Shown piece after piece: positions 40,792 through 64,000 of a DNA stretch of 64,000 bases. How positions within the stretch are numbered: position 1 is the first letter of the stretch; every line of letters begins with the position of its first letter. Under the pieces are notes generated by a model, which worked only from the letters and a program-made list of their open reading frames with translations, was not told the origin of the DNA and ran no database searches. Location: positions 1-64,000 of IMG/VR virus record IMGVR_UViG_3300028837_001424. The stretch is one strand, 5' to 3'. A program made the translations under genes and the position numbers. The DNA is from a virus.

Positions 40792-40843
40792 CATACGAAA
40801 TTATAGATTTAATCTTTGAATTTAATAATTCAGGGAGGTTCTA

Positions 40844-45314: not shown

Positions 45315-45332
45315 GAGCGAGGTTCATGAACT

Positions 45333-45370
45333 AGAGGTAGCGCCGCGCCGTTGGGTCGGCGCTACCTTTT
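45333..45370 (+). terminator. Intrinsic terminator
   Basis: AGGTAGCGCCG/CGGCGCTACCT stem followed by TTT. Confidence 0.75.
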
Positions 45371-45388
45371 GATTAATGGGAGATTGAA

Positions 45389-46720: not shown

Positions 46721-46735
46721 TAAAAGGAGCTAATC

Positions 46736-46951
46736 ATGGCGTTTTATGGATATACTCACGAAACAATAGAGGCAATGGAGAAGTTTTTCTCGGAACGCGA
46801 CATTCAAGCAATGGTCATAGATCAATGTGCCGTATTGCATGAAAGAATCTGCGCTTCTAACGAGCATGTGATCATCAAAACAGGCATTAATAAAGGTAGA
46901 TGCAAGTATTGTATGAAGATGATTGCCGAACCAATGCCATTACCTAAATAG
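46736..46951 (+). CDS. Hypothetical protein
   Basis: AAGGAG RBS. Confidence 0.5.
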   Translation: MAFYGYTHETIEAMEKFFSERDIQAMVIDQCAVLHERICASNEHVIIKTGINKGRCKYCMKMIAEPMPLPK

Positions 46952-47414
46952 CAACGCGCTTCTAATGACCAGTGGATTGAATTATTACACCGAAATGCTT
47001 AAGGCGGCCCGCGAAGGCCGTACCTTTACTTGCTGGGTTAATGACTATAAACCAGGCGACGGGCTTAATGTCGTAAATATGACTGGTTCTTTTCATAATC
47101 TAAATCCAGGAGAACAGGCAGTTATTACACAAATTGCATTTGGAATTGTTTCTATAAATGACAGTGCCCATTTTGAGGTTGGATACACTAGTGAGGGATA
47201 CTGTTCTGGAACATTTACTCCAATTCATTATCATGAAGAATTAACATCTGGAGCAGCAAAAGAATACAGCGCGATAAAAGATGAGACATTTTTACCACCA
47301 AAAGTTGTGAAATATTCTGATGTTGTAAAGTGCGTTTGCCTAAGAGCCGACTGTAGCGATTCAGACGTTGAGGTTACGGTAGGGTTTAGTGGCTGGGTCG
47401 AACCAGAGGATTAG
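46923..47414 (+). CDS. Putative virion beta-sandwich protein
   Basis: Lies in the structural operon; C-terminal GFSGWVE. Confidence 0.5.
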   Translation: MPNQCHYLNSNALLMTSGLNYYTEMLKAAREGRTFTCWVNDYKPGDGLNVVNMTGSFHNLNPGEQAVITQIAFGIVSINDSAHFEVGYTSEGYCSGTFTPIHYHEELTSGAAKEYSAIKDETFLPPKVVKYSDVVKCVCLRADCSDSDVEVTVGFSGWVEPED

Positions 47415-47428
47415 TAAGGAATAAAAAT

Positions 47429-48844: not shown

Positions 48845-49110
48845 TGGAAATTCCTCCTGAGGCAATCGTCAATGAAGCAGGTCAAGTTGCAATGTGCCAC
48901 AGGAGACCTAGGCAAGTTTGCGTCAAGTGTGCTAACCGAAGCCATGTTTTTGTTCTTCGAGGCAATTGGGCACTTACATGGGTTGAAAGAGAAGATGTGC
49001 CATGTATACTTGCCAAACGCTCAAAGCGTGGTTGTTGTGGCGGTAATAGCAGAAAGGCGTTTATGTTCGCCACAGCAGCGGCGATTAATTTATGGAATAT
49101 GACGAAATAA
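48844..49110 (+). CDS. Small Cys-rich protein
   Basis: GCCGG; TAATG coupling. Confidence 0.5.
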   Translation: MEIPPEAIVNEAGQVAMCHRRPRQVCVKCANRSHVFVLRGNWALTWVEREDVPCILAKRSKRGCCGGNSRKAFMFATAAAINLWNMTK

Positions 49111-49123
49111 TTTATTCATTAAC

Positions 49124-49152
49124 TTGCACAATGTCAATTTGTTTTGTAAAAT
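49124..49152 (+). promoter_or_regulatory. Sigma70 promoter heading the glycosylation operon
   Basis: TTGCAC-17nt-TAAAAT. Confidence 0.55.
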
Positions 49153-49176
49153 AGGTAAACACTTTAGGAGACGATC

Positions 49177-49677
49177 ATGACTGAATCAAATGTTGAAGAG
49201 GCCAAAGGATATACCAAAGAAGCGCTGATGCGAATGAGTAAGCAAGAAATCATCGCAGTGGCAGACGAGATCGGCGTTGATCTTTCTGTTTTGCCTAAGC
49301 TTACCGAAGACTCGATTTCTGACGCCATCTTGGTTTTTCTTGAGCCTTATCTGGAAAAAGATGGTTCATTAGACGAGCTTCCAGTTGAGTATATTGAGGA
49401 AGAATTGGCAGAACCGACTGAGCCAGTCGAGTTAGAGGGACTGGTGGAACCAGAAGAGCCGACCGAGACTCCTGAGCCATGCGAAACGGAAGAGGTGGCG
49501 GAATCAGAGGAGCCGGCTGAAGCAGAAGAACAAATCGAATCGGAAGAGCCTGTCGAGCCTGAAGAGCCATCAGGTCCAGATCCCACCGTAATGTCTGGTT
49601 CTCATCAAGAGATTCTAAGGCCTGTCAAGATTGAACAATCTGTTAGGGTGCGGCGCATAGCGGAAAGCAATAAGTGA
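49177..49677 (+). CDS. Acidic Glu/Pro-rich protein with a Rho-N-like motif
   Basis: LMRMSKQEIIAVADEIG; EEPxE repeats. Confidence 0.6.
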   Translation: MTESNVEEAKGYTKEALMRMSKQEIIAVADEIGVDLSVLPKLTEDSISDAILVFLEPYLEKDGSLDELPVEYIEEELAEPTEPVELEGLVEPEEPTETPEPCETEEVAESEEPAEAEEQIESEEPVEPEEPSGPDPTVMSGSHQEILRPVKIEQSVRVRRIAESNK

Positions 49678-50495
49678 AAATTGCTGTTACAGGACCTAAA
49701 GGGCGGCTAGGCTCTTGCCTAGTAGATAAAGGTTGTATCCCGCTTGACTTTGATATAAACAATCCAAGTCTTGTCGAGAGCGAACTGGATAGCATTAAGC
49801 CAGATGTACTTATAAACTGTGCAGCCTGGACCGATGTAGACGGTGCGGAGGTGGGCGAAAATCTTTATGAGGTGCTTCTTACCAATCTACGCTCACCTGG
49901 CATCCTAAGGGTAAATCACGAAGGCTTGTTTGTTCAGATATCCACTGGATATGTATTTGGAAATGATGAAGGCCCTTTTACTGAGGCAGATGAACCAGAT
50001 CCATTGAGTTGGTACGGTTGGTCGAAATTCGGAGGCGAGAAGGCCGCCGAAATACGCTCTCCAACTTTGATTATTCGAACGCTTGATTTATTTGGAATTA
50101 ACACTAGAACTGATTTTGTGAAACAAGTACGAGAAATGATTGAATCAAATTCCCAAATAGAATTGCCCGATAATCTTTTTGGTACACCTACTTATATTCC
50201 ACATTTAGCCGAGGCTTTGCTGATAGCAATCGAACGCGGTTTAACTGGCATTATAAACATCGCGGGCGATCTCACTCTGAGCCGCTACGATTGGGGAAGA
50301 ACGATAGCTAGACATTTTGGGGCTGACCCTGACATTATAGTACCTACCCAAACGATAAAGGGTAAGGCGCAGAGGCCACTGCGGGGTGGCTTGAATGTCA
50401 ACAACGCCCAAAAACTAGGTCTTCCTATTTATTCTCCCATCGATGGATTACGCGGCATATCGGAGTGGGAGAATGCCAGGGGTAAAGCCTTCTGA
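49674..50495 (+). CDS. rfbD: dTDP-4-dehydrorhamnose reductase-like SDR
   Basis: TGPKGRLG, NCAAWTDVDGAE, STGYVF, YGWSKFGGE, GTPT. Confidence 0.85.
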   Translation: MKIAVTGPKGRLGSCLVDKGCIPLDFDINNPSLVESELDSIKPDVLINCAAWTDVDGAEVGENLYEVLLTNLRSPGILRVNHEGLFVQISTGYVFGNDEGPFTEADEPDPLSWYGWSKFGGEKAAEIRSPTLIIRTLDLFGINTRTDFVKQVREMIESNSQIELPDNLFGTPTYIPHLAEALLIAIERGLTGIINIAGDLTLSRYDWGRTIARHFGADPDIIVPTQTIKGKAQRPLRGGLNVNNAQKLGLPIYSPIDGLRGISEWENARGKAF

Positions 50496-50937
50496 GCGTC
50501 CTCTAAACTCAGTTCTTTTCTTAACCTATAAAAGAGCCGATCTTATAGACGAGCGTATTAGAGAGATTGAGCGCTTGTACTCTTCGCGTTCCGACGTTGA
50601 GCTTATTGTATTTGATAACGGTTCTGAGGGTTCGAACATCGCATTATGCCTTTTGGCACAGTCCGAGGTGGCCAGACTCAATAATTGGAAACTACAATTT
50701 CATACACATAAGATTGAAAAGAATGTCGGCTTTTCGGCTGGCTGGAATGAGGCTTTGCAATTCGCGAATGGCGAATATATATTCTTGCTCAGTGACGACG
50801 TACAGGCATTTGGCGATTTTATTACACCGGTTATTGCCGCATTAAAAGTAGCACCTAACGCAATTGTTGGGGAAGCGTATATTAATTGGCCCGCTGGCTG
50901 GAATGAGTTTGGGCACCTTCCACCAAAGGAGCCATGA
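50473..50937 (+). CDS. GT2 glycosyltransferase, apparently C-terminally truncated
   Basis: VFDNGS, NVGFSAGWN, FLLSDD; the usual GGFD/ED region is missing. Confidence 0.65.
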   Translation: MPGVKPSERPLNSVLFLTYKRADLIDERIREIERLYSSRSDVELIVFDNGSEGSNIALCLLAQSEVARLNNWKLQFHTHKIEKNVGFSAGWNEALQFANGEYIFLLSDDVQAFGDFITPVIAALKVAPNAIVGEAYINWPAGWNEFGHLPPKEP

Positions 50938-51194
50938 TGACTGATCCAATCAAACCCAGTATTGATGAGATTGATGTTGAACATTTGGAGATTAAGCGAA
51001 TAATCCCGATTCATCCCGAAGCCAAATATATGATCTTATGTGGCCCTGATGTTTTACAAGCAGAGGCCGATCAATTGGCGGTTAGGATAAAAGAATGGTA
51101 CTCAGATCCCGAAACGCCAATTGCGATTGTAATGGGAGATATTTCGCTTGTCAGGGTTGACAAGATAACCGATGAGGCGTTGGACATTGGCTAA
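50934..51194 (+). CDS. Hypothetical protein
   Basis: ATGA coupling. Confidence 0.5.
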   Translation: MMTDPIKPSIDEIDVEHLEIKRIIPIHPEAKYMILCGPDVLQAEADQLAVRIKEWYSDPETPIAIVMGDISLVRVDKITDEALDIG

Positions 51195-52155
51195 GAAAAA
51201 GAAACTCAAGGTCATAATAACAGGTATTTGGTATCCAGTAGCAATCTGTCGATACCTGTGGGAAGCCTTACTCAGCTATCCCAATATTGAAACATGGTGT
51301 GCTGGTCCTTATGCAGGGCGCGAAATCCCTTGGGCTAATAAAGAAAATCCAAGAGGAATGAATCTGCCACAAAAATATGTACTCAAGCCAGATCACCCGA
51401 CGCCAATGACCCAACCTCCGATGGTTTCTTATGCAATGCTTGAGAAACACAAGCCCTGGGAACCCGACCTGTGGTTGGAAGTAAACGCCGGATTGCAGGC
51501 TATAGGTAAGCCGATTAGTGCGCCATTGGCTGTTGTAGCAACAGATCCTCATGTGCTCAACTACACAGGTGCGCGCGAGCGCGCAGATTACTTTTTCAAT
51601 ATGCAAACGCCCTATATGAAGTCAGGTGACATCTGGCTACCATATGCATATTCCCCTAAGTGGCACGCGCAAACGGATAAACCAATCAGAGAGCGCGAGT
51701 GGGACGCCGCCTTGATCGGCCTTCAATACCCCAACCGAATAAATCTTGTGAATAGGTTGCGCCAGCCAAACAATCATCTACACAGGGAAGGCGCTGGTTT
51801 CAAAGTCTTCTCGAAGCTAGGACCGTCCTATGATGATGCCCGTGAGATTTATCACAACACGAAGATAGGACTCAATTGGTCAAGTCTTCAAGACACAACG
51901 GCTAGATGCTACGAACTGATGGCCTTTGGTATACCAGCGGTTATGAACAGAGTTCCCGATCTCATGAAGCTTTTTAAGGATCGTCGAGATTTCCTTGGCT
52001 TTGACAGTGAGGACGAGGCCGTAGCCATCATTCACGAGCTTCTAAACGATATGGACTGGGCGGAGGAAGTTGGAAAGCAAGGACGCAAGGCCGTTGAGGA
52101 ACATACTTGGGAAGCAAGAATAAAAACCATTATACAAGAGACAGGAGTGATTTAA
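51172..52155 (+). CDS. Glycosyltransferase, CgeB/YkvP-like (GT-B)
   Basis: WLPYAY, KIGLN, RCYELMAFG, HTWEAR. Confidence 0.8.
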   Translation: MRRWTLAKKKKLKVIITGIWYPVAICRYLWEALLSYPNIETWCAGPYAGREIPWANKENPRGMNLPQKYVLKPDHPTPMTQPPMVSYAMLEKHKPWEPDLWLEVNAGLQAIGKPISAPLAVVATDPHVLNYTGARERADYFFNMQTPYMKSGDIWLPYAYSPKWHAQTDKPIREREWDAALIGLQYPNRINLVNRLRQPNNHLHREGAGFKVFSKLGPSYDDAREIYHNTKIGLNWSSLQDTTARCYELMAFGIPAVMNRVPDLMKLFKDRRDFLGFDSEDEAVAIIHELLNDMDWAEEVGKQGRKAVEEHTWEARIKTIIQETGVI

Positions 52156-52157
52156 TT

Positions 52158-53069
52158 ATGAAATGTGTCGTGATTGGAGGTTCGGGATTTCTTGGCGGCG
52201 CAATAGTTGACGAGCTAGTGGCAAGAGGCGATCAAGTTATTAGTGCCGATAGGAATATTCGCGAATTGAAAGATGGTGTCGAGAGCCGCTTCTGTGACTT
52301 GACGGAACCATCAACCATAAAAGATGTGGTTGATGGCGCAGACGAGGTTTATCTGATAGCTGGCGTTCTTGGAACGTCTGAATTGGATGATCAGATTATT
52401 AGTGCGATTAGAGTAAATGTGATGGGAGCAGTGAATACCCTAAATGCCTGCGTCGAAGCTGGCGTAAAACGATTGTTCTACCCAAGCAAGCCCAATCCTT
52501 GGTTGAATACTTATACAATCACCAAGATCGCGGCAGAGCAATTCATGAAGATATACCACGAAAGATATGATCTGAACGTCATTGTAATGAGATGGTTTAA
52601 TGCTTATGGGCCAGGACAACATGCTTATCCTGTGAGGAAAATTGTTCCGACATTTTGCTTACAAGCAAGATACGGAGAGCTTTTGACCATATTTGGGACG
52701 GGCGAGAACGTATGCGATCTTGTGTCCTCCAGGGATATTGCCCGGTGGTCCGTTGAGGCAACGAGGCTGGAATTGTGTAAGCAAGTTTGGGATTTTGGCC
52801 GTGGAATAGGAATGACGGTCAACCAAGTAGCGGCAGATATTCTTACCGTTGCTGATAAAGATGTGCGAAATGTTCAACATATACCAATGCGTAGGGGCGA
52901 AGTTGAGGGAACGAAATTGGTGGCAGACATCGATGATTTGAGGGATGCGTTTGCCCAAAAAGGGAAAAAGATATATTTCGAATCATGGATGGAAACGCTC
53001 AGGGAAACCTATCGATATTACGAGCATTTGCCAATGGAGAAATTATTAAAAGCAATGGAGATCTGGTAA
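52158..53069 (+). CDS. NAD-dependent epimerase/dehydratase
   Basis: GGSGFLG, YTITK, RWFNAYGPGQ. Confidence 0.88.
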   Translation: MKCVVIGGSGFLGGAIVDELVARGDQVISADRNIRELKDGVESRFCDLTEPSTIKDVVDGADEVYLIAGVLGTSELDDQIISAIRVNVMGAVNTLNACVEAGVKRLFYPSKPNPWLNTYTITKIAAEQFMKIYHERYDLNVIVMRWFNAYGPGQHAYPVRKIVPTFCLQARYGELLTIFGTGENVCDLVSSRDIARWSVEATRLELCKQVWDFGRGIGMTVNQVAADILTVADKDVRNVQHIPMRRGEVEGTKLVADIDDLRDAFAQKGKKIYFESWMETLRETYRYYEHLPMEKLLKAMEIW

Positions 53070-53075
53070 GTATTT

Positions 53076-53372
53076 ATGACGGAAAAAGATTGTATCTATG
53101 AGGCAATTGCCGCGCACTACGAGCGCATGATAACCTATAACGTGCGCGAGGCACTTGTGATGAACAAATGCCTTCATTCAGTAAGCGGGCTTTACGACGT
53201 GCTTTGGCAGCATAAGCGAGAGCTTATTATGTGCGGTGCATTTGATCAACTATGGGAAAGTGCTAACGCCTTGATGCAAGTAATTGAAGTGCGCGCAGAA
53301 ATTACGGGATTAAGGGCTATTTCATCAGAGAGTATGACCAAGGATATTACAAATAAACTGAAGGATCTTTAG
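53076..53372 (+). CDS. Hypothetical protein
   Basis: ORF in the operon. Confidence 0.5.
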   Translation: MTEKDCIYEAIAAHYERMITYNVREALVMNKCLHSVSGLYDVLWQHKRELIMCGAFDQLWESANALMQVIEVRAEITGLRAISSESMTKDITNKLKDL

Positions 53373-53376
53373 GTAA

Positions 53377-54051
53377 ATGGGCAAAAAACTTGTTCCCACA
53401 TCGGCAATATTTGAATTGAAAGATGCTCATAAATTTGGCATAGGAAAGGGACTAGAAATTCATGAGCGAATGAAGGGGCGCTATGCAGGCCAACCTTATG
53501 ATTGGGGCGTTTTAGCAGAAATGATTAAGTGGGCAGGAGACGGGGATCATTTAGAAATCGGAACATTGTTTGGAGGAAGTGCCATATTATCGGCGTTGAC
53601 GAAAATTAAATATGGGCTAAGTGGCAATATTATTTGCGTCGATCCACTAGATAGTTATTACGGCATTAAAGTCGATCCTGGAAGCAACGTTCCAGTCACA
53701 CCCGAAATTGTGAGAAAGAATCTTGAGCTTTTCAATGTTCAGGATCGAATTGAGCTAGTGACTAAGAAATCTCAACCCTGGCCCTTGCCTCCAAACCGCA
53801 AGTTTAATAGTGCATATATAGATGGTCAGCATGATTATAAGGCCTGTTTATCAGATTGGGTAAATTGCGAAGCTTGTGTTGATAAGGTAATACAATTTGA
53901 TAATCATGACATGGCACACGCTGCTATTTGCAACGTCGTTTCTCAAGTGTCTAAAGACGAATGGTTAACTGTACATATTAGTGGAATAAGCGCCGTGTTG
54001 GCGAGGCGTACTTGGCTTAGGCCCGATTGGAAAAAGAGGGAATTATGGTAA
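53377..54051 (+). CDS. SAM methyltransferase (Methyltransf_24-like)
   Basis: LEIGTLFGGSA, VDP, YIDGQHDY. Confidence 0.82.
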   Translation: MGKKLVPTSAIFELKDAHKFGIGKGLEIHERMKGRYAGQPYDWGVLAEMIKWAGDGDHLEIGTLFGGSAILSALTKIKYGLSGNIICVDPLDSYYGIKVDPGSNVPVTPEIVRKNLELFNVQDRIELVTKKSQPWPLPPNRKFNSAYIDGQHDYKACLSDWVNCEACVDKVIQFDNHDMAHAAICNVVSQVSKDEWLTVHISGISAVLARRTWLRPDWKKRELW

Positions 54052-54773
54052 ACAAAGATTTAAATATCGAGAATTACAAAAATCGCCATCTTGGAGAGCG
54101 GGCATTTATTGTAGGCAATGGTCTAGGCACAACTCCCGAAATACTGGATCGACTTGAGCATTCTGGATGGATCACATTTGGAATGAACCGTATTGGAATG
54201 ATCTTCCCCAAAACTTCCTGGCGTCCAAGATTTTATATAGGCACTACCTCGGCTATAAATGATCCTATCCATAGACCCGATAATCTGGCTGGTATTCGCT
54301 CGTCTGAGATTGCTTTTTGCTGTGATGGCTACAAGAATTATCTGGATGAAAGTATTAACGATAACGTGATTTATCTTAGTTGCTCCCAGCTTGAGGATTG
54401 GCTAGGAAAACACAATGAAGCAACCAATGATTTTTGGTCAGACGATATATCTAATCGCCTTTCTAAATTTGCTTGCACCGCTTTTCCGGCAATGCAGGTG
54501 GCGGCTTATTTAGGACTTAATCCGATTTATCTTATTGGTTGCGACGCGGACTACAGACCTCCTGTTGATGGCGTCGATCCATCTCACTTTGATCCTAAAT
54601 ATAGACCGTGGCACGCGTATCCAAGTTACGAGAACTTGAATCTAGGTATACAACGGGCACACGAAATAGCGCAAGTGGCTGCAGACAGATTGGGAATAGA
54701 AATAATTAATATTTCCCCAATCAGCGAAATTACTGCCCATACGTTTGGAAGCTTGGACGAGGCATTGGCATGA
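54045..54773 (+). CDS. DUF115/MptE-like (Maf/sialyltransferase-like) protein
   Basis: YKNRHLGERAFIVGNG, FGMNRI, AAYLGLNPIYLIGCD, SHFDPKY. Confidence 0.78.
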   Translation: MVNKDLNIENYKNRHLGERAFIVGNGLGTTPEILDRLEHSGWITFGMNRIGMIFPKTSWRPRFYIGTTSAINDPIHRPDNLAGIRSSEIAFCCDGYKNYLDESINDNVIYLSCSQLEDWLGKHNEATNDFWSDDISNRLSKFACTAFPAMQVAAYLGLNPIYLIGCDADYRPPVDGVDPSHFDPKYRPWHAYPSYENLNLGIQRAHEIAQVAADRLGIEIINISPISEITAHTFGSLDEALA

Positions 54774-55168
54774 CTAAACCCAAAAGTGCATTCAGTGGAC
54801 ACAAATTTAATATAGTTAGATGGCGCGGAAACCCAACGGAAGCAACGCTAAAAAGCGGACATGTTGTACGCAAAGAAAAATATATTTATTATCGTGACAC
54901 GAATGACAGGTGGATTGCTGTACGTGCCTCCGACTATCATGGCGAACACTTTGTCTATGTTGATCCACTTTTCAACGATGGTGTATTAGGGCATTTCTCG
55001 TTTATGTGTACTTGTGGTAGCCCCGCGGTTATTGTAGGCCCGGCAGACGCCGCACTAGAAGACACTAATTGCCCAGAACGATTATTGGTGTGCTACATAT
55101 ACCATCTTACGCTTACAAAGTATGGTCACGGCTGGCATCAAACCAGCGATGGTAGGAGATGGGTATGA
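54770..55168 (+). CDS. Hypothetical protein
   Basis: CTCG...C..H...H motif. Confidence 0.55.
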   Translation: MTKPKSAFSGHKFNIVRWRGNPTEATLKSGHVVRKEKYIYYRDTNDRWIAVRASDYHGEHFVYVDPLFNDGVLGHFSFMCTCGSPAVIVGPADAALEDTNCPERLLVCYIYHLTLTKYGHGWHQTSDGRRWV

Positions 55169-55809
55169 AACTTAGTCATGAGGCCTGGTTTTTGGGGCTT
55201 AAACTGGAAGGGGAAATCAAAAAGAAACTGGTTGGCGAGTATCAAATGTGGGATAACCAGTTGGGTTTGCTCGCGCAAGTCGTTGAATGTGCCGGCAATG
55301 GATATCATCTTGACATAGGTACAATGTGGGGAGGATCAGCGATATTAGCCGCACTGGTAAAAAAGAGGATGGGCTTAGGCGGACTGGTTTATACAGTTGA
55401 TCCTCTTGATCAACAATTTTTTGATGATAATAAGGGTTATTTGAGCAGTCATAAAGACCCAGTTATACCTACAGTTGAACAAATACTGGAAAACTTCAAG
55501 ACTTTTGGTGTCGAAGATCGAATTATTTTCAAGCAAGTTAAATCATCAGATTTGCCATATCAGTTTAGACGTTTACCAGTATCGGCATTTATTGATGGGG
55601 CACACGACTTTGACAGCGTATTAATTGACTGGGCAACTTGTAGCAAATATTGCAATTTTATAATGTTCCATGATTATTCTGAGATCTCGGCTTGGAAGGG
55701 CGTGAATGAAGTGGTTGATAGATATGTGCTCAAGGACGATAAATTTGAAGTGCTAGGCGAGGCAATACACTGTATCGCTTTTGTAAGAAAAGAACAAGAG
55801 AATATATAA
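55165..55809 (+). CDS. SAM methyltransferase (Methyltransf_24-like)
   Basis: LDIGTMWGGSA, FIDGAHD, FHDY. Confidence 0.82.
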   Translation: MKLSHEAWFLGLKLEGEIKKKLVGEYQMWDNQLGLLAQVVECAGNGYHLDIGTMWGGSAILAALVKKRMGLGGLVYTVDPLDQQFFDDNKGYLSSHKDPVIPTVEQILENFKTFGVEDRIIFKQVKSSDLPYQFRRLPVSAFIDGAHDFDSVLIDWATCSKYCNFIMFHDYSEISAWKGVNEVVDRYVLKDDKFEVLGEAIHCIAFVRKEQENI

Positions 55810-56496
55810 ATGAAAGTTGTCATGATAGCCAGGAGTAAAAACGAGGCATTGAATATAGGAAGGTTTTGCAACGCCTATCGGGATTGTGTTGACATGATAC
55901 TTCTGGCAGATGGAGGGAGCGAAGACAATACCGTTGACATTGCAAAAGGCTTCAAGAATGTGCAGGTACGCCATTTCAAGGAACGAATGGAATTTCCAGG
56001 AGGAGTTTGGAGGAATCCTCACGGCAAACACATGAACTTTCTTATTGATTGGGCATTAGAGGAAGATCCCGACTGGATTATCTTTGATGATATTGATTGT
56101 ATACCGACCGAGGCACTTCGATTAAATCTTCGAGAAATAATGGCGAACGCCGATCATCCCTCAATTTGGCTTTATCGGTTATATGTTTGGGGGAAGGATC
56201 AATATTTTCCCAAACTTAATGAGCCAGGTAAAAGTATATATGCCTGGAAGCCCGAATTGGGTATAGTGGCACAAAACGAGCCGCCCTTAGCGTGTGTTCT
56301 TTTAAATGTTCCAAGCGATACTAAGGGAGTGATTCTTGAGCCTCCGTTTTGTATTATGCATTATTTTTGTCAGACCGAAGAGTTGGCCCAGGCCAAGTTG
56401 GAATTCTACAGGGCTACTGGAGAACAGACGGGCATACAACATCCGAGCAAATTTGGCGGGCCATTGGAATATTTGCCCGATTGGGCGCATGAGTGA
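55810..56496 (+). CDS. GT2 glycosyltransferase (paralog 1)
   Basis: KNEA.NI, ADGGSEDNT, DWIIFDDID. Confidence 0.85.
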   Translation: MKVVMIARSKNEALNIGRFCNAYRDCVDMILLADGGSEDNTVDIAKGFKNVQVRHFKERMEFPGGVWRNPHGKHMNFLIDWALEEDPDWIIFDDIDCIPTEALRLNLREIMANADHPSIWLYRLYVWGKDQYFPKLNEPGKSIYAWKPELGIVAQNEPPLACVLLNVPSDTKGVILEPPFCIMHYFCQTEELAQAKLEFYRATGEQTGIQHPSKFGGPLEYLPDWAHE

Positions 56497-56501
56497 AATA
56501 G

Positions 56502-57188
56502 ATGAAGATTGTGGTAGTGGTCAGAACCAAGAATGAGGTTCGTAACATAGCTCGATTTTGCGCTGCATATAAAGAATGCGCTGATCTTATTCTCGTGGCG
56601 GATGGCGGAAGTGAGGATTATACAGTACCCATTGCCAAATGCTTCAATAATGTAAAGGTTCGCCACTTTGAAGAACGCATTGAATTTCCAGGAGGCTTGT
56701 GGCGCAATCCGCATGGCAAACACATGAACTTTATGTTTGATTGGGCGGTTGACGAGGGTGCGGACTGGATTATTTTTGACGATTGCGATTCTGTTCCTAC
56801 CGCTACGCTGAAAGAGAACATTCGGGAAATAATGACGAGTGCCGTCCATCCAACAATTTTCGCAGACAGATTGTATATTTGGGGTAGGAATAAATATTTC
56901 CCCAAACTTAATGAATCGTGGACGCCTTTATATGCCTGGAGACCAGAAGCGGGTATAGTGGCAGAAGAGAGAAATCCAATAGCGTGCCAGATATTGAATA
57001 TACCGCCAGTGGAAGAACGCGTAATTCTTAAGCCGCCGCTGTGTTGTTTGCATTATTTTTGTCCAGACAAGGAGACTGCACAAGCTAAACTAGATTTCTA
57101 TATAACTATCGGCGAGCAAAAAGACGCAACGCATCCGCTTGAATTCGGAGGGCCATTAGAAGATTTACCGGAGTGGGCACATGAATAA
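56502..57188 (+). CDS. GT2 glycosyltransferase (paralog 2, tandem duplicate)
   Basis: Same 228-aa length and long identical blocks with 55810-56496. Confidence 0.85.
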   Translation: MKIVVVVRTKNEVRNIARFCAAYKECADLILVADGGSEDYTVPIAKCFNNVKVRHFEERIEFPGGLWRNPHGKHMNFMFDWAVDEGADWIIFDDCDSVPTATLKENIREIMTSAVHPTIFADRLYIWGRNKYFPKLNESWTPLYAWRPEAGIVAEERNPIACQILNIPPVEERVILKPPLCCLHYFCPDKETAQAKLDFYITIGEQKDATHPLEFGGPLEDLPEWAHE

Positions 57189-57789
57189 AGTTGTAGCGTT
57201 GGCCATGAATTATAAATGCCTTTTGGGTTATCAAGAGCCTTATGAAGAGCCGATTGTTTTTCTAAAGTCTAGAGAAGCCATCATCGGACCTGGAGAGACA
57301 ATCTTTATACCTCATGATGCTATTGTTTGGCCAGAGGTTGAATTGGCTATTATTATTGGCAAGCAGGCTAGGAATGTTTTGCCCAAGGATGCTTATAAAT
57401 ATATTATTGCGTATGCGATCGCAAATGATGTTACGGCATATTATGGGGATGAACGAGATGTGCATTATGCTAAATCCAAATGCCCAGACACATTTCTGCC
57501 AATGAGCCATATTGTATATGCGCCCGAAGCACCTATCTGGAAATCTCAAGAACTAACCACATTCATTAATAGCCATAGGGTGCAAGCTGGCAATGTTGGA
57601 GACATGATTTTTGGAGTTGAAAAAGCGGTAGAATTTATTTCTAGTTGGATGACGCTCAATAAAGGCGATGTTATTATAACTGGTACGCCCTGGCACAATC
57701 GACCAGAATTACACGACGGCGATATCGTGACTGTTGCGATTGAGGGATTGGGCGAAGTGATTAATCCGGTAAAACTAAGGAAAAACTAA
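57181..57789 (+). CDS. Fumarylacetoacetate hydrolase family protein
   Basis: EVELAIIIGK, NDVTA, KCPDTF, GDVIITGTP. Confidence 0.88.
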   Translation: MNKVVALAMNYKCLLGYQEPYEEPIVFLKSREAIIGPGETIFIPHDAIVWPEVELAIIIGKQARNVLPKDAYKYIIAYAIANDVTAYYGDERDVHYAKSKCPDTFLPMSHIVYAPEAPIWKSQELTTFINSHRVQAGNVGDMIFGVEKAVEFISSWMTLNKGDVIITGTPWHNRPELHDGDIVTVAIEGLGEVINPVKLRKN

Positions 57790-59282
57790 TGGCTCATTCT
57801 ATAACGCAGTTCAAAGATAAATATAAGGGCGAGCGCTGCTTCATTATAGGGAACGGTCCAAGCCTTGCTCGAACACCACTTAGTTTAATTAAGGGAGAAT
57901 ACTCTATTGGCATAAACAGGATAGGGATGCGATATGATAAAACCGATTGGCGTCCCAGTCACTTCTTGTGTGTTACTCAATGGGTAAAGAAGGACGATTA
58001 TCGGGCAGATGTACTAAAATCAATCGATCTTGGCATACCTTGTTTTATAGGCGAACGTATTAGACACTTTATTAATCGGGAAGATGAAAACATCACTTGG
58101 GTTGATTGTACTTTTCCACACGCGGATGAATCGTATGACATAAACAAAACAAGTCTAAAGTGGTGGCTTAGAGATATATCAGATGGGATATTGAATTATT
58201 ATTCGAATGCAACATTTGCAGCAACGAAGCTGGCGGTTTATATGGGTTTTAATCCGTTAATTTTTGTCGGTTGTGATTTGGGCTGGAAAGGTTTAAATTA
58301 TTTGGAATACGGCCTAGACCATGATCATTTTGATAATCGTTATGAAGACGCAACTTTTGAAAAACCCGCTGACCATTGGGACAAATTCAATCCTGATGCA
58401 ATTCGAGCGCACGAGATTATAAGAGTTTGTACAAAGAGTATAGGGGTAGATGTTTACAATGCCACTTTGGGCGGCGAGCTTGAAGTATATCCAAGAGTTA
58501 ATTTTTTGAAGACGGCCATGAAGATTTCTGAACCGCAACCCAAGGGGCTTGATGTGAAAGAACTACTGGGCCAATATAAGGGAGAAAGGATTTTCATAGT
58601 CGGCTGCTCAAAGAGTCTTACGGTAGAACAACTTGATCTTATTAAGGGCGAGTATTCGTTTGGATTAAATCGTATTGCGATGTTATACGACGAAACCGAA
58701 TGGAGGCCGACCTTTTATAAAGCGGCACCACCAGAATATTTGAGCTATAAGCCCTTTAGAGATGATGTAATCAGATCCATAGAGCTTGGAATTCCCTCGT
58801 TCTTGTGTGTTCGCTTACGCTCACACGTAGAAAACGGCATTGAGTATGGTATTGGTGATGCATACGATAATGTTCATTATATTTCATGCACGGCTAGGAC
58901 TCATGGCGAGGATCTTGAGTGGTGGGCAACAAACTATAAAGAAGGGGGAAACGTCGGACGATATTCAAGCTCCACTTTTAGATCGGCCATGATTGCGATC
59001 AAAATGGGTTTTGAGGAGATCGTATTTATCGGCGTAGATATGGATTATCAGATACACGAAGAGGATGGTCCTGACCCCAACCATTTTGCCCCTGACTATG
59101 TTCCAAGACTTGGGCGCTCCGATGTTCATTTAGAGGCGATTAATAAATCGTTTTTAGAGCAATATGAAAGGTTAGAGGAACAAGCCAAATTCTTGGGCAT
59201 TAAGGTGATAAACGCAACAGAAGGTGGGCTACTTGAAGTTTTCCCGCGAGCCAATTTAAAAGAATTAATTAAAAGGGAATAA
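57789..59282 (+). CDS. Tandem double DUF115/MptE-like (Maf-like) protein
   Basis: Two YKGER.FI.G...NRI...MGF..I.F.G.D...HF...NAT.GG.LEV.PR units. Confidence 0.8.
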   Translation: MAHSITQFKDKYKGERCFIIGNGPSLARTPLSLIKGEYSIGINRIGMRYDKTDWRPSHFLCVTQWVKKDDYRADVLKSIDLGIPCFIGERIRHFINREDENITWVDCTFPHADESYDINKTSLKWWLRDISDGILNYYSNATFAATKLAVYMGFNPLIFVGCDLGWKGLNYLEYGLDHDHFDNRYEDATFEKPADHWDKFNPDAIRAHEIIRVCTKSIGVDVYNATLGGELEVYPRVNFLKTAMKISEPQPKGLDVKELLGQYKGERIFIVGCSKSLTVEQLDLIKGEYSFGLNRIAMLYDETEWRPTFYKAAPPEYLSYKPFRDDVIRSIELGIPSFLCVRLRSHVENGIEYGIGDAYDNVHYISCTARTHGEDLEWWATNYKEGGNVGRYSSSTFRSAMIAIKMGFEEIVFIGVDMDYQIHEEDGPDPNHFAPDYVPRLGRSDVHLEAINKSFLEQYERLEEQAKFLGIKVINATEGGLLEVFPRANLKELIKRE

Positions 59283-59283
59283 A

Positions 59284-60117
59284 ATGAACAAAATTATGGG
59301 TTTCATTGAGCATTTATTGGGCTGGGAAATTGAAAAAAAGCCCAACAAAACAGAAAATCGCTTGACAAACAGGCGAATACCTATGAATAAGATTGCGGTT
59401 ATTATACCCGCCAGACTTGCATCAACGAGATTTCCTCGCAAGGCCTTGGCCGATATATATGGAAAGCCCGTGATACAAAGAGTTTACGAGGCGGCTAGCC
59501 AAGCCAAAGGTATAGCTGACGCATTTGTTGCGACGCCCGATGTTGAATTGGCAGAGGTCGTCGAATCCTTTGGTGGCAAGTATATTATGACTGGTCCACA
59601 AGACACTTGTCTAGGAAGATGCTCGGAGGCAATGAGAGACGACGCACTTTTTGATTATTATGGGGCAGTTATTGCACAGGGCGACGAGCCTATGTTGAAG
59701 CCCGAAATGCTTGATGTAGCAGTTGAGGCACTTGGCAAGTATGGTGTTTGTTGGTTAGTAAAAAAGATTCTGCCCCATGAAGATCCAACCGACATCAATA
59801 TGATAAAGTGTGCTTTGAATAGTAACGGCAATATTATTTATGTTTCGCGCGGGGCAATTCCTATCCCTACGCCTGAAGGAGACCATGACTTTATACCAAC
59901 TTATTATAAACAAGTAGGCGTAGTCGCATTTGGCAGAAGAATGCTAATCGAATTCAATAATCTTGAAAGAGGACCACTGGAGAAATGCGAGGGTATAGAT
60001 TTGCTCAGATTTCTTGAGCATGGCGTAATAGTAAGTTCGGCTCTTTCGCCCTATGATACACAATCGCTTGACACCCCAGAAGATTTGGAACGAATACTGG
60101 ACATGTGGCCTAAATGA
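59284..60117 (+). CDS. kdsB: CMP-Kdo synthetase-like cytidylyltransferase
   Basis: IIPARLASTRFPRKALADI, QGDEP, LEKCEGIDLLRFLE, DTPEDL. Confidence 0.85.
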   Translation: MNKIMGFIEHLLGWEIEKKPNKTENRLTNRRIPMNKIAVIIPARLASTRFPRKALADIYGKPVIQRVYEAASQAKGIADAFVATPDVELAEVVESFGGKYIMTGPQDTCLGRCSEAMRDDALFDYYGAVIAQGDEPMLKPEMLDVAVEALGKYGVCWLVKKILPHEDPTDINMIKCALNSNGNIIYVSRGAIPIPTPEGDHDFIPTYYKQVGVVAFGRRMLIEFNNLERGPLEKCEGIDLLRFLEHGVIVSSALSPYDTQSLDTPEDLERILDMWPK

Positions 60118-60926
60118 ATAATAGAGTTGCAGCCATCATTGTTAATTATAATATGCCCGAAAGAACAGATGCCTTATGTTCTTATATAAAGGTACATGTT
60201 AAATGGCCCTACGATCTTATTGTTGTAGATAATGGTAGTGATCCAAAATATCCGTCCGAATGGACTACCGTTAAGCTTCAACAAAATGTACAAACAACAA
60301 ATGGCTGGTTGTGTGGTGTTGCCTATGCAAAAGGATTAGCTAGTATGCGCAAGGAGCCTTATTTGGGCTACTGGTTCATGATAACAAGTGCCGAGTTTGT
60401 AAAAGAAAGCAAAGACCCGCTTACGCCAATAGCGAATATATTGCTGGATATACCCGACGCGGTTGTGGCCTCGCCGGCGCTTACCAAGGATAGCACAACT
60501 GCACATGTACAAATGATAACAAGAGGAGGCAACGACCCAAGACGCACATGGCTACTTGATAACATTGCTGCGTTATGGAGGGCAGATTGGCTCGATTCCA
60601 TTGGCGGTTTCCCGCCAGAACTTACCATGGCCTGGGGTTGTGATTTTGAAACCTGTTATCTTGCAAGAAAGGCTGGCAAAAGTATCTGGATACACGAGGG
60701 CACGCGTGTCAAAAAAATAAGTGACATAGGTTACACAATGGATCGCATGGGAATGACCGCTGAGGAGAGAGGCCCTATGGCCGGTCTTGAAATGAGGAAT
60801 TATCTTGTGCCTAAATACGGCGAAGATTATGACGCAAGACTTCATAAGGAATACACAGACCCAAAATGGTGTAGTCGTGTTACAAGGATAAATGAATGGC
60901 AGCCTTCTGCCGATAAGGAGAATTAA
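60114..60926 (+). CDS. GT2-like glycosyltransferase
   Basis: IIVNYN, VVDNGSD, IGGF..WGCD. Confidence 0.75.
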   Translation: MNNRVAAIIVNYNMPERTDALCSYIKVHVKWPYDLIVVDNGSDPKYPSEWTTVKLQQNVQTTNGWLCGVAYAKGLASMRKEPYLGYWFMITSAEFVKESKDPLTPIANILLDIPDAVVASPALTKDSTTAHVQMITRGGNDPRRTWLLDNIAALWRADWLDSIGGFPPELTMAWGCDFETCYLARKAGKSIWIHEGTRVKKISDIGYTMDRMGMTAEERGPMAGLEMRNYLVPKYGEDYDARLHKEYTDPKWCSRVTRINEWQPSADKEN

Positions 60927-60927
60927 A

Positions 60928-61794
60928 ATGGCCAAAGACCCTGCAGTGGGACCTATTACTAGATATGACAAATTCGGGAACGCAAGAGTTGATCGAGGAG
61001 AGGCACTACCCGTTGTTCCAGTAGAGGAAGTAATTGAGTATGCTCCCGAAAAGAAGGACATGAAGACGATCATTTTGGCTGGCGGTCATGGTACTAGATT
61101 GCAGGATGAAACCGAGGGGAAGATCCCTAAGCCATTGGTAAAGATTGGCCTAATGACAATGCTTCAACACATCATTTACCTTTATGAAGGCCAAGGCAAT
61201 AGCCAGTTCATAGTGGCGGGTGGCTATAAGGCAGACGCGTTGTTGAAATGGCGAGAAGAATTGCATGATGTGTTTGGGCATCGTGAATTAAATGTTCTTA
61301 TAACCGATACTGGCGTAGAGACGCAGACTGGTGGCCGGCTTCTACGTTTAAAATATTACTTGTCTAAACCGTTCATGATGACCTATGGCGATGGCTTGTC
61401 TGATATAAATTTATCGGCGCTTGCGGAGTTTCATGATCGAATGGTTATTGATCACAACATTCTTGTTACTTTGACTGCGGTAAGACCGCCAGCGCGCTTT
61501 GGAAATCTTGTAATCGAAAACGGTCTTGCAAAGCTATTTGTAGAAAAATCGCAGGCTACAGGTGGTTGGATCAATGGCGGTTTCTATATTATCCAGCCAG
61601 ATGCTTTGAATTTGATCAGCGGTGATTCCTGTAGATGGGAATATGATGTTTTGCCTACATTGGCAATTCAGGGAAGGCTTGCCGCATACCAGCATACTGG
61701 TTATTTTCAAATGTGCGACACATCGCGAGATCTGGAATCACTGAGAAGTATATGGGAGCTTGGAAATGCCCCATGGGCGAGGTTATTTAAATGA
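60928..61794 (+). CDS. rfbF: Glucose-1-phosphate cytidylyltransferase
   Basis: ILAGGHGTRL, PKPLV, DTG..TQTGGRL, MTYGDG, WINGGF, DT.RD. Confidence 0.88.
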   Translation: MAKDPAVGPITRYDKFGNARVDRGEALPVVPVEEVIEYAPEKKDMKTIILAGGHGTRLQDETEGKIPKPLVKIGLMTMLQHIIYLYEGQGNSQFIVAGGYKADALLKWREELHDVFGHRELNVLITDTGVETQTGGRLLRLKYYLSKPFMMTYGDGLSDINLSALAEFHDRMVIDHNILVTLTAVRPPARFGNLVIENGLAKLFVEKSQATGGWINGGFYIIQPDALNLISGDSCRWEYDVLPTLAIQGRLAAYQHTGYFQMCDTSRDLESLRSIWELGNAPWARLFK

Positions 61795-62840
61795 CAGACG
61801 ATTTGATTAAGCAATTGAAAAACCAACGAGTTTTGGTAACCGGTGCCACTGGTTTTATGGGCCAAAGGCTTGTCGATATTTTATTGAGCGCGGGAGCGTA
61901 TGTAAGCGCGCTAGTACTTGACATTGATTTTGCCAGTCGGTTTTATAGAGAAACCTACATGAGTTGTCTGGCCAATCGAATAGAGAAAACCATCACCGGT
62001 GATCTGCGCAATTACTTTGACTGTGAACGGGCAGTTGCCGAATCGAGACCTACTATCATATTTCATTTGGCGGCCATAACCCAGGTATGCGATGCAAGCA
62101 GGATGCCTCTACAAGCGTTTGATTCGAACATTATGGGTACGGCCAATCTGCTTGAGGCGGCGCGCAAGATAGCTCCTGGAGAGATTGCAATAGTAGTTGC
62201 TTCAAGCGATAAAGCGTTTGGTGAACCAATTGACGAGATGCCATTTAATGAAAACTCAGTACTAAACCCTATTCATCCTTACGATGTATCTAAGGCATCG
62301 GCGGATCTGGTTGCGAGATGTTACGCTTTACATTATGGAGAAAAAGTTGCCATTACTCGTTGCGGAAATGTATACGGGCCGGGCGATATCAATTGGCAGC
62401 GCCTCATACCCGAAGCGATTAGGTGTGGCCTAACTGGTAAAACGCTGATCATTCGTAGCGATGGGTCACTGGTGAGAGAATACAATTATGTCGATGACAT
62501 AATTGATGCTTACATTCGGATTGCGCTTTCACTCATGCCTTGGGGCGGTCAACCTGAGCCATGGGCGCTGGGTACATCTTGGACGGTTTCAGATAATCGA
62601 GGACGTATGAGCGTTTTAGAAATAGTAGATAAGATAAGCGCCGTCATAAATCAAGATATCAAAATTGATATATTAGGAAAAGCTCAAGACGAGACGGGAG
62701 AATTGATACTTGAATCTGGTTTAATTAGACGCAAATTGGATTGGCGACCAAAAACGGAACTGCCAGAAGGCCTACGAAAAACTACCAGATGGCTTGTCAA
62801 GCACCTAAGAAGTAGAGGTGAGGTTGTAAAAACGGTATGA
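61791..62840 (+). CDS. rfbG: CDP-glucose 4,6-dehydratase-like SDR
   Basis: VTGATGFMG, FHLAA, SSDKA, PYDVSKA, RCGNVYGPGD; follows rfbF. Confidence 0.75.
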   Translation: MTDDLIKQLKNQRVLVTGATGFMGQRLVDILLSAGAYVSALVLDIDFASRFYRETYMSCLANRIEKTITGDLRNYFDCERAVAESRPTIIFHLAAITQVCDASRMPLQAFDSNIMGTANLLEAARKIAPGEIAIVVASSDKAFGEPIDEMPFNENSVLNPIHPYDVSKASADLVARCYALHYGEKVAITRCGNVYGPGDINWQRLIPEAIRCGLTGKTLIIRSDGSLVREYNYVDDIIDAYIRIALSLMPWGGQPEPWALGTSWTVSDNRGRMSVLEIVDKISAVINQDIKIDILGKAQDETGELILESGLIRRKLDWRPKTELPEGLRKTTRWLVKHLRSRGEVVKTV

Positions 62841-63319
62841 ATGGTTTGATTGATGGCGTAAGTGTGACGGATCTAAAAGTTATTAAGGATGAGCGCGGGG
62901 CCGTATGGCATATGCTGCGCGCGGGCAATATGCCATTTTTTGAGCCAATGGGAGAAGTATATTTTTCAATGGTGCGTCCAAATGTTGTAAAGGCCTGGCA
63001 CTGTCATAAAGCCATGAGGCTAAATTATTGCTGTGTTGTTGGAGAAATTCAATTAGGATTAGTGGATCTGAGGCTATCCAGTCCAACTTTTGGCATAGAG
63101 AATACAATATATTTAAGTGACGGAATGTTACCGAATTACAAATTAGTTAGCATACCGCCGCTTGTATGGAACGGGTTTAGAAGTCTTGCTATAAACAACA
63201 ATAGCGCGCTTATGGCCAATATGGCCACGCTTCCGCATGATCCAGAAGAAATAGTTAGAGTCCACCCTAGAGAATTTCCAGTAGATTATTATTGGGGAGA
63301 TTACGAAATAGCGGGCTAA
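62837..63319 (+). CDS. rfbC: NDP-4-keto-6-deoxy-sugar 3,5-epimerase (RmlC-like cupin)
   Basis: DERG, VKAWHCH, DLR..SPTFG, IPP.VWNGF. Confidence 0.8.
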   Translation: MNGLIDGVSVTDLKVIKDERGAVWHMLRAGNMPFFEPMGEVYFSMVRPNVVKAWHCHKAMRLNYCCVVGEIQLGLVDLRLSSPTFGIENTIYLSDGMLPNYKLVSIPPLVWNGFRSLAINNNSALMANMATLPHDPEEIVRVHPREFPVDYYWGDYEIAG

Positions 63320-63392
63320 TTGCGCCCAGGCACGCAGGAGCGTGTAGGAGACGATTTTTGATGGAAAACATGATACAGGACACCTTAATCCG

Positions 63393-63758
63393 ATGATGAT
63401 CATTGTAAACTGTCGGGCGCTATATTCTTGCCCATGGATTTCATATTTACTCAGTGAGCTACAACCAGCCGAAAATCAGGTTGTAGTATGCGGGATGCTC
63501 TCCGACTATGACAGCGGCAAGATTGAAGCCGCCAAAGCAGCGTTCCGAGCGATAGATTACGAGATCTGCCAGGATAATAACTTGCGTAGTCATGTTGCAA
63601 TGCTCAATCTATTGACAAATCGGCACCAGGAAAAGACGGGCGACTTCCTGCTTGTAAGCAGTATACCTGCCGATCAGGAAGCCGCCGTATCGATCGGCAT
63701 GGAATATATTCAACCGGAGTTGTTCGATGTAGTTTATAAAGGATTGATTAATGGCTAA
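63393..63758 (+). CDS. Hypothetical protein, degenerate HAD-like
   Basis: C-terminal ADQEAAVSIGMEYI. Confidence 0.45.
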   Translation: MMIIVNCRALYSCPWISYLLSELQPAENQVVVCGMLSDYDSGKIEAAKAAFRAIDYEICQDNNLRSHVAMLNLLTNRHQEKTGDFLLVSSIPADQEAAVSIGMEYIQPELFDVVYKGLING

Positions 63759-64000
63759 TAAGCAATCAAGGCTTAAGCTCCAAATAGCCGGTCTGGCTGA
63801 TATCTACGCCGAGAGAGAGTATCGAGGCCAGGAAGAATTCAAGGCTGGAAAAACCTATATACCTCCAAGCGGAAAAGTTGTTCGAGGCCTAGAGGCGGCG
63901 TATGGCGTAGAGGCCGTTCTTGACGGTTGGCTTACGGAGGGCCGTTGGGTTGATCAATTCGAAAAGAAACTAGCGTCTTACATCAGCGTCAGATATGCAT
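63751..64000 (+). CDS. rfbH: RfbH/DdhC-like CDP-4-keto-6-deoxyglucose 3-dehydrase (DegT family), runs off the window
   Basis: Not in the ORF track; reads MANKQ...FKAGKTYIPPSGKV...AVLDGWLTEGRW..QFEKKLA. Confidence 0.8.
   Translation, partial: MANKQSRLKLQIAGLADIYAEREYRGQEEFKAGKTYIPPSGKVVRGLEAAYGVEAVLDGWLTEGRWVDQFEKKLASYISVRYA

Follow-up and report, generated by a model that had tools for sequence, protein, structure and literature searches.

A glycan-synthesis island between the capsid and neck genes of an uncultured marine-sediment phage and its possible role in virion glycosylation

Described systems and the glycan island

To our knowledge the glycosylation of phage virions is experimentally known only from actinobacteriophages, which have few transferases for it. 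We describe here an 18.6-kb island of glycan-synthesis genes (49674-68301) placed between the capsid and neck genes of IMG/VR virus record IMGVR_UViG_3300028837_001424, a sequence of 112,591 bp rated complete by CheckV, the first 64 kb of which are the stretch analysed (the window). The closest precedent is the virion glycosylation cassette of Cluster O (Corndog-type) and other mycobacteriophages; in the Corndog type an O-methyltransferase and three glycosyltransferase (GT) genes lie between portal and protease (PMC4351075). The products of that cassette are made in infected cells and are absent from virions, in the proteomics of which capsid peptides are scarce (PMC4351075), and a statement in PMC11600133, citing Freeman et al. 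2023, has these enzymes modifying capsid and tail-tube proteins. On mycobacteriophage structural proteins the acceptor segment is C-terminal (PMC12619734). Both Cluster O and the present phage encode soluble GTs and methyltransferase inside the head gene array. Nevertheless the Cluster O cassettes comprise three or four genes, draw on host donors and belong to actinobacteriophages, whereas the present island counts 26 genes, three donor routes and eight transferases, has capsid genes on one side and neck genes on the other, belongs to an uncultured lineage of marine sediment that is unrelated to those phages, and has a predicted part in virion modification. That this phage glycosylates its own virion proteins in the cytoplasm has, in our judgement, about an even chance of being right, and the basis for it is synteny.

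DUF115/Maf proteins are soluble cytoplasmic protein O-glycosyltransferases using CMP-activated sugars. The island resembles the Maf flagellin systems in its three DUF115/MptE-like domains, found beside a CMP-sugar synthetase of the CTP_transf_3 family, and in the soluble, cytoplasmic nature of the enzymes. It differs in that the synthetase is KdsB-type and not PseF/LegF/NeuA-type (PseF 38 bits), that the island showed no nonulosonic-acid synthase (a genome-wide search for NeuB was not made), that a phage has no flagellin target, and that identity to named Maf proteins is ~29% over one domain. With the CDP-3,6-dideoxyhexose loci of Salmonella and Yersinia the island shares the order RfbF-RfbG-(epimerase)-RfbH and an RfbH above the equivalog cut-off; unlike them it has no E3, no Wzx/Wzy and no priming transferase, and its RfbF and RfbG fall below their equivalog cut-offs. 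Giant viruses (chloroviruses, Mimiviridae; PMC4691112) also possess their own routes to rare methylated deoxy-sugars and clustered multi-domain transferases which work in the cytoplasm without recourse to the secretory glycosylation of the host. However, those are viruses of eukaryotes whose glycan structures were experimentally determined on capsid or fibrils, and the sequence link to them is one of enzyme superfamilies at most. Finally, the DNA glycosylation clusters of Pyle et al. (10.1101/2023.12.21.572611) are similar in their envelope-derived GT-A/GT-B enzymes, sometimes with epimerases and sometimes near structural genes, but the hydroxymethylase or dioxygenase partner that defines them is absent here.

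Between 49177 and 68301 there are 26 open reading frames (ORFs) on one strand, mostly overlapping by 1-8 bases and with a largest gap of 73 bp, in an array continuous with the capsid-side genes. The island encodes eight GTs, three DUF115/Maf-like domains, two methyltransferases and one fumarylacetoacetate-hydrolase (FAH)-family enzyme (Table 1). A previous sequence-only reading of the window had reported more than 14 kb of such genes (49674-64000) and had named an RfbD (RmlD-like) enzyme, an epimerase, RfbF-RfbG-RfbC-RfbH, KdsB, five GTs, three DUF115 domains and two methyltransferases, all of which were found again by family profiles or paralogy. The island is real but larger, as it runs 4.3 kb past the window through two GT4 genes and one GT2 gene, and the FAH-family gene was missing from that inventory. 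The genes were also said to follow directly upon capsid and fibre genes: the capsid gene, which anchors the conserved position of the island, is indeed upstream, but here at a distance of ~9 kb, and a fibre identity is not established for the five ORFs in between. The same reading had noticed no flippase, polymerase or undecaprenyl-phosphate transferase, and this holds, because a hydropathy scan revealed no multi-pass membrane protein in island or genome. No island protein has more than one hydrophobic segment or was classed as a membrane protein, and no protein of the whole genome has more than three such segments. This genome scan, together with Pfam on the island proteins, gave no priming transferase, flippase, polymerase, ligase or transporter.

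In the mechanism that we propose, the transferases would assemble a methylated oligosaccharide of rare sugars straight onto one or several virion proteins, either the capsid protein or a decoration protein. This would take place in the cytoplasm ahead of lysis and with no lipid carrier, and the particle would bear a lineage-variable glycan coat. Two layers of genes would contribute to it. The first would be an ancestral core inherited vertically with the capsid gene, and the second a set of hypervariable accessory genes supplying and tailoring the donor sugars, which in this phage would be the CDP-3,6-dideoxyhexose route, KdsB with the three Maf-like DUF115 domains, GDP-mannose 4,6-dehydratase (Gmd) with an SDR enzyme, and two O-methyltransferases. 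The acceptor, the identities of the sugars and the timing are what we infer here. Virion glycosylation is favoured by the constant place of the genes between head and neck, by their divergence in step with the capsid and by the Maf-like domains.

Conserved core and variable layer in related phages

Searching first with the capsid protein and then with four aligned capsid proteins, we obtained 39 viral loci with 50-66% identity, on which island synteny was read by tblastn with the proteins of this phage. Homologues of island genes are found directly downstream of the capsid gene in ~23 of the 25 loci with enough sequence, and in the two seeming exceptions (G005 and G006) the transferase genes lie at a greater distance downstream. 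The reciprocal search, made with an alignment of the core GT-B, returned 41 loci including 18 new ones. The same capsid gene is present 2-7 kb upstream in 13 of these, the upstream sequence is too short in three, and two, both the most distant, are without it. The synteny in related phages that had been proposed as a check is borne out by both searches. Altogether an island occupies the corresponding position, directly behind an SU10/HK97-type capsid gene, in ~57 related viral contigs. Moreover, the GT-B profile matched at least 814 distinct metagenomic proteins, almost none of them from named organisms.

The boundaries of the island are also shared. Two long relatives, G001 (102 kb) and G002 (112 kb, with terminal repeats), have islands of 12.6 kb and 22 kb flanked as here by the capsid gene and the Cys-rich protein on one side and by homologues of 72984-74992, with weak head-tail adaptor and Neck1 matches, on the other. 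In every sufficiently long locus the island ends at neck-gene homologues (73336, 74040, 74426), and the minimal islands of ~5.5 kb (L042, L037) consist of the transferase core alone followed by the neck genes.

Proteins encoded downstream of the capsid gene in 26 non-redundant loci formed 233 clusters, 199 of them singletons. The most frequent is the 88-aa Cys-rich protein (23 loci), which is always encoded just ahead of the transferase genes and is the most conserved after the capsid protein, followed by GT-B (22), GT2 (20) and SDR enzymes (14). The 132-aa zinc-type protein occurs in at least 14 of the 26 loci and the two GT4 in 12 and 11, many loci ending before the GT4 genes. The conserved core comprises the Cys-rich protein, GT2, GT-B, the zinc-type protein, two GT4 and a further GT2. 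Pairwise identities of GT-B and of the capsid protein are correlated (Mantel r 0.65; 0 of 2000 permutations as high), and for this reason the core is taken to be inherited vertically with the capsid gene.

The genes for donor sugars and tailoring are hypervariable from one relative to another. The island of G001 carries a sulfotransferase and a different methyltransferase. In that of G002 there are an additional GT2, a HAD phosphatase and a nucleotidyltransferase, along with several envelope proteins encoded as a block. The KdsB, DUF115, FAH and Methyltransf_24 genes belong to this phage alone among the loci examined, most of which end 8-10 kb beyond the capsid gene; one KdsB-like match in L043 (27% identical) is the only exception. 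We hold it possible, at somewhat less than an even chance, that a large and widespread group of uncultured phages with an ancestral capsid-linked core (five transferases, zinc-type protein and Cys-rich protein) diversifies its particle surface by swapping donor and tailoring cassettes. With the same reserve, the swapped cassettes (dideoxyhexose, Kdo/Maf, sulfo- and methyltransferases) can be suggested to result in O-antigen-like particle 'serotypes' made autonomously in the cytoplasm, in the manner of giant viruses.

Donor sugars and the target of the glycan

Judged by their families, RfbF, RfbG and RfbH would together produce CDP-4-keto-3,6-dideoxyhexose. The RmlC-like epimerase and the RmlD-like reductase presumably parallel the AscE/AscF logic of the ascarylose pathway, and by this analogy they would lead to an L-configured, ascarylose-like sugar if a host reductase replaces E3. 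RfbH needs E3 (RfbI/AscD), an iron-sulfur flavoprotein reductase in which a 2Fe-2S domain is joined to one that binds flavin/NAD. No PF00175 or PF00111 match that would indicate it was obtained in the whole genome, while control genomes were matched, and therefore a host reductase must serve RfbH. The RmlD-like gene is 11 kb away from the other genes of the CDP route and is kept in relatives without RfbH, so this reductase may serve another route.

Among the KdsB models the phage KdsB passes NF003952 alone (TIGR00466 124.6 bits, below the cut-off of 155). It is ~40% identical to named KdsB proteins of Bacteroidota and Planctomycetes, and its relatives at about this identity also include Omnitrophota. 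The genome has no PF00793 match for KdsA (Kdo-8-phosphate synthase), and therefore Kdo or a related acid must come from the presumably Gram-negative host. The host is probably a Gram-negative bacterium; the three phage tRNAs are uninformative in this respect. As the KdsB gene adjoins that of the tandem DUF115 protein, the latter would, if it works like Maf proteins, transfer an acid sugar activated with CMP. Gmd may feed the SDR enzyme for a GDP-6-deoxyhexose, which is predicted as the third route, and the two methyltransferases would tailor the glycan. The claim that the phage makes its own rare donors stands insofar as the RfbF/G/H, KdsB and Gmd/SDR routes are encoded, and falls short in that E3 and KdsA are absent.

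The other part of the earlier claim, a methylated glycan on the virion, agrees with the presence of soluble transferases and methyltransferases in a morphogenesis array devoid of export genes; no acceptor was found, and the target is something that we infer. Several observations weigh against it. The virion proteins contain no Ser/Thr-rich tail or window, the maximum being 8-12 Ser/Thr per 30 residues. The acidic Glu/Pro-rich protein encoded immediately before the island was considered as the glycan acceptor and set aside: its positional orthologues (L005 11969-12754, L013/L015 12922-13674) have long EPEA-type repeats and conserve the basic C-terminus, and it is a poor O-glycan acceptor candidate because these repeats are in some orthologues without Ser/Thr. 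The AlphaFold2 (AF2) model of GT-B (pLDDT 93.6) has a generic GT4-like fold that matches enzymes with lipid, small-molecule, polysaccharide, protein (SdgB) and DNA (T4 AGT) acceptors alike, so the fold is silent on the acceptor. A complex prediction of the capsid protein with the zinc-type protein gave no verdict either way. In addition, the complete relative G004 (61 kb) is without the island, which is thus non-essential for this capsid type, and the donor supply is incomplete in the two steps named above. Soluble transferases can, moreover, extend host lipid-linked intermediates that are exported by host ABC transporters. Finally, the coupling of envelope-type genes to transferase genes in G002 points to the cell envelope.

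Remodelling of the host envelope is the alternative that survives best, and we regard it as unlikely but by no means negligible. The soluble transferases would alter the host O-antigen, capsule or wall polymer on host lipid carriers, for export by transporters or ligases of the host, and the purpose would be to block superinfection or to avoid adsorption of progeny to debris. The block in the G002 island consists of a secreted lipoprotein of the LCP family that carries a lipobox signal, a DUF3307 membrane protein with a signal peptide and an M23-SH3 peptidase (L012 5161-7831, L007 19552-20676), all located between transferase genes. LCP enzymes attach lipid-linked glycopolymers to the cell wall; this phage, however, has no LCP gene. 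KdsB, 3,6-dideoxyhexoses and terminal methyls are characteristic of the O-antigens of Gram-negative bacteria and of chain termination in ABC-transporter-dependent systems, and the reliance of the phage on its host for Kdo and the E3 reductase is in line with such a role. Phage glucosylation of ABC-transporter-dependent O-antigens is known from work cited in PMC13477221. Nevertheless the genome is without priming transferase, flippase, polymerase, ligase and transporter, and the island without a membrane protein. The core, moreover, is fixed beside the capsid gene and diverges with it, unlike the sporadic, mobile surface-modification genes of other phages, and its position in the structural array suggests late expression, which would come too late to protect the infected cell.

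It is improbable that the transferases serve another cytoplasmic target, such as a host factor or an internal or scaffold protein of the phage (for example the acidic protein), or that they make a free oligosaccharide or glycolipid. This would account for the failure to find an acceptor among the virion proteins, and it could involve the zinc-type and Cys-rich core proteins, which have no known function, or the acidic E/P-rich protein encoded immediately upstream; GT4-fold enzymes also include the small-molecule glycosyltransferases MshA and BshA. However, a set of eight transferases with three Maf-like domains and three donor routes points to a complex heteroglycan and not a simple tag, and the conserved head-neck position argues for a link with morphogenesis.

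Sugar hypermodification of DNA, in which modified bases are decorated to evade restriction as in the T-even phages, is very unlikely. Phage DNA glycosyltransferases do use GT-A and GT-B folds and some of their clusters are near structural genes (10.1101/2023.12.21.572611), the T4 alpha-glucosyltransferase appears at rank 20 of the fold matches of GT-B, and a C5 cytosine methyltransferase is encoded at genome 96551-97279. Nonetheless the phage DNA glycosylation known so far depends on either a ThyA-like hydroxymethylase or a TET-like dioxygenase, whose gene as a rule stands in one cluster with those of the transferases (10.1101/2023.12.21.572611), and the complete genome has neither a ThyA-like hydroxymethylase (PF00303) nor a TET/JBP dioxygenase (PF12851). 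The C5 methyltransferase lies 28 kb from the island among unrelated neighbours, and the known pathways are clustered, with one to three transferases and host donors (10.1101/2023.12.21.572611).

The joining of a host polysaccharide locus to a phage contig during assembly, which the sequence-only reading had named as one case that would undo it, can practically be dismissed: the content does resemble bacterial O-antigen loci and the record differs by 267 letters at 50921/50922 from Logan contigs, an independent assembly, but GC content and skew are uniform over the window, phage genes lie on both sides on the same strand, the Logan contigs continue without a break over the junction of capsid side and island (44131 to 50921), and the same arrangement is seen in dozens of contigs from different samples.

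Neighbouring genes, single features and implications

The DNA of this genome was found in Logan contigs of two runs from one marine-sediment metagenome, probably the source sample, and there was no RNA run among the sequencing runs holding it. Promoter and terminator scans (39000-58900 and the island end) did not exceed shuffled controls and were uninformative on transcription units. In the Logan contigs 267 extra letters stand between 50921 and 50922, within the short core GT2 ORF, and the public record seems to miss 89 codons of this gene, either through an assembly drop or as a deletion variant. Since 267 letters equal 89 codons, the gene is probably intact at ~253 aa, and its orthologues have 208-262 aa. 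The 86-aa ORF that follows was considered as a split-off C-terminus of the short GT2 and rejected, as it could not be aligned to the GT2 orthologues; the missing letters are the better explanation.

The left part of the window contains tRNAs, DNA methyltransferases, the large terminase, the portal and MuF-like head proteins. In the Atlas the capsid protein has a feature score of 0.98 to SU10_MCP/HK97 clusters and a structural TM of 0.61-0.84. For the 8-kb block of five ORFs that follows it no homologue was obtained in any related locus. One of its products (45389-46720) weakly matches phrog_10356, 'virion structural protein' (3e-19), and another (47429-48844) carries a TIG/IPT domain; the block is possibly involved in head or fibre decoration. 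A cultured-phage collection searched at the nucleotide and protein level gave no matches to the island, to the capsid protein or to the 1005-aa protein, and only weak partial ones to the 443-aa protein. Many proteins throughout the genome are unusually rich in cysteine, the capsid protein having 9 residues, the 1005-aa protein 18 and a 446-aa protein encoded at 92246-93586 as many as 25; this may reflect a host of anoxic sediment. Between island and neck genes a minus-strand insertion of 4.7 kb (genome 68.5-72.9 kb), absent in G001 and G002, contains pentanucleotide arrays (GCTNN at L002 8691-8823).

In the 132-aa core protein the invariant H, F, CxC, C, H pattern suggests a zinc site. Its AF2 model, although confident (pLDDT 86.8), has no structural match in PDB (Foldseek, VIA-align wide) or BFVD, and the Atlas gave sub-threshold leads and nothing more. 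Together with the 88-aa Cys-rich protein it is a candidate adaptor, decoration protein or acceptor. The 248-aa protein is paralogous to both halves of the tandem DUF115 protein (BLASTP 6e-28 and 2e-25), hence the count of three Maf-like domains is correct. Relatives of the tandem protein are often methyltransferase fusions, and one is named 'motility associated factor glycosyltransferase'. PDB sequence and profile searches were uninformative for the tandem DUF115, 270-aa, 248-aa, GT-B and zinc-type proteins. The two tandem GT2_4 genes correspond to a single copy in the relatives, and the 270-aa protein has an orthologue in L013/L015. The top NCBIfam matches of the FAH-family enzyme, HpaG-C and 2,4-didehydro-3-deoxy-L-rhamnonate hydrolase, score far under their cut-offs. 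In G001 the position of the 121-aa ORF is taken by a gene of about the same length whose sequence is not detectably similar. RfbH has 83 codons within the window and the remainder beyond it.

The gmd gene, located outside the island, is interrupted by an intein of ~330 aa, and the intein-free orthologue of G002 matches residues 4-182 and 515-654 contiguously. A LAGLIDADG domain is also present in the DNA methyltransferase encoded at 18573-21320. The C5 cytosine methyltransferase ORF spans only the N-terminal half of the family model and is followed by an ORF with DUF559 and a LuxR-type helix-turn-helix (region 96551-97956); this methylase may be split or interrupted.

Table 1. Coordinates of the island genes, the capsid-side genes and gmd, with the matches on which each assignment is based; coordinates above 64,000 lie past the window.
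Feature	Coordinates	Strand	Basis or remark
Gmd (GDP-mannose 4,6-dehydratase) with LAGLIDADG intein	3249-5219	+	PF16363 365.6 bits in two stretches; LAGLIDADG_3
Major capsid protein, SU10/HK97 type	39525-40730	+	Atlas SU10_MCP clusters; 50-66% identity in 39 viral loci
Five larger ORFs (480, 1005, 443, 163, 471 aa)	40844-48844	+	Lineage-specific, 8-kb block
Small basic Cys-rich protein, 88 aa	48844-49110	+	Most conserved gene after capsid gene
Acidic Glu/Pro-rich protein, 166 aa, basic C-terminus	49177-49677	+	Immediately before island
RmlD-like NAD(P)H 4-ketoreductase	49674-50495	+	PF04321 130 bits; TIGR01214 140 bits, below cut-off 224
Core GT2, shortened in record (164 aa)	50443-50937	+	PF00535 48.6 bits
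86-aa ORF	50934-51194	+	No family match
Core GT-B (Glyco_trans_1_2)	51172-52155	+	PF13524 70.5 bits
SDR nucleotide-sugar epimerase/reductase	52107-53069	+	PF01370 110 bits
98-aa ORF	53076-53372	+	No family match
Methyltransferase (Methyltransf_24)	53377-54051	+	PF13578 27.9 bits; 36% identical to 55159-55809
Single DUF115/MptE-like (Maf-like) domain protein, 248 aa	54027-54773	+	Paralogue of 57789-59282; no Pfam match
Core small zinc-type protein, 132 aa	54770-55168	+	Invariant H60, F61, C80, C82, C108, H123 in 16 orthologues
Methyltransferase (Methyltransf_24), paralogue of 53377	55159-55809	+	PF13578 25.3 bits, just below cut-off 26.3
Two tandem GT2_4	55810-56496, 56502-57188	+	PF13704 30.9 and 26.0 bits; mutually 62% identical
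FAH-family enzyme	57181-57789	+	PF01557 154 bits
Tandem DUF115/MptE-like (Maf-like) transferase, two domains	57789-59282	+	PF01973 59.6 bits (cut-off 34.6), two stretches; internal duplication
KdsB-type CMP-ulosonic-acid synthetase	59284-60117	+	NF003952 198.9 bits, above cut-off 193
270-aa protein, weakly GT2-like	60114-60926	+	No Pfam match; BLASTP 1e-3 to GT2 50443
RfbF-like glucose-1-phosphate cytidylyltransferase	60892-61794	+	TIGR02623 216.9 bits, below cut-off 300
RfbG-like CDP-glucose 4,6-dehydratase	61791-62840	+	TIGR02622 172.9 bits, below cut-off 278; PF16363 155 bits
RmlC-like cupin epimerase	62837-63319	+	PF00908 36.5 bits, above cut-off 27
121-aa ORF	63393-63758	+	No family match
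RfbH (CDP-6-deoxy-D-xylo-4-hexulose 3-dehydrase, E1)	63751-65067	+	NF011936 624.8 bits, above cut-off 423; end-to-end alignment
GT4	65067-66122	+	Pfam; past window
GT4	66119-67405	+	Pfam; past window
GT2, last island gene	67402-68301	+	Pfam; past window

A phage that glycosylates its own particle would be of a known kind, but the present case would be much larger and more autonomous, with a conserved core and an O-antigen-like variable layer, in a widespread lineage unrelated to the actinobacteriophages, and its autonomy would recall the glycosylation of giant viruses (PMC4691112). If this is true, phage surfaces undergo a diversifying glycan evolution like that of bacterial O-antigens and giant-virus capsids, which bears on adsorption to particles and mucus, on viral grazing and decay in sediments, and on the evasion of recognition by hosts or predators. 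It would also bear on the reading of 'auxiliary metabolic' sugar genes in viromes, which are now routinely scored as host-reprogramming. Moreover the core GT-B, zinc-type and Cys-rich proteins are clonable targets for assays of cytoplasmic, lipid-free protein glycosylation.

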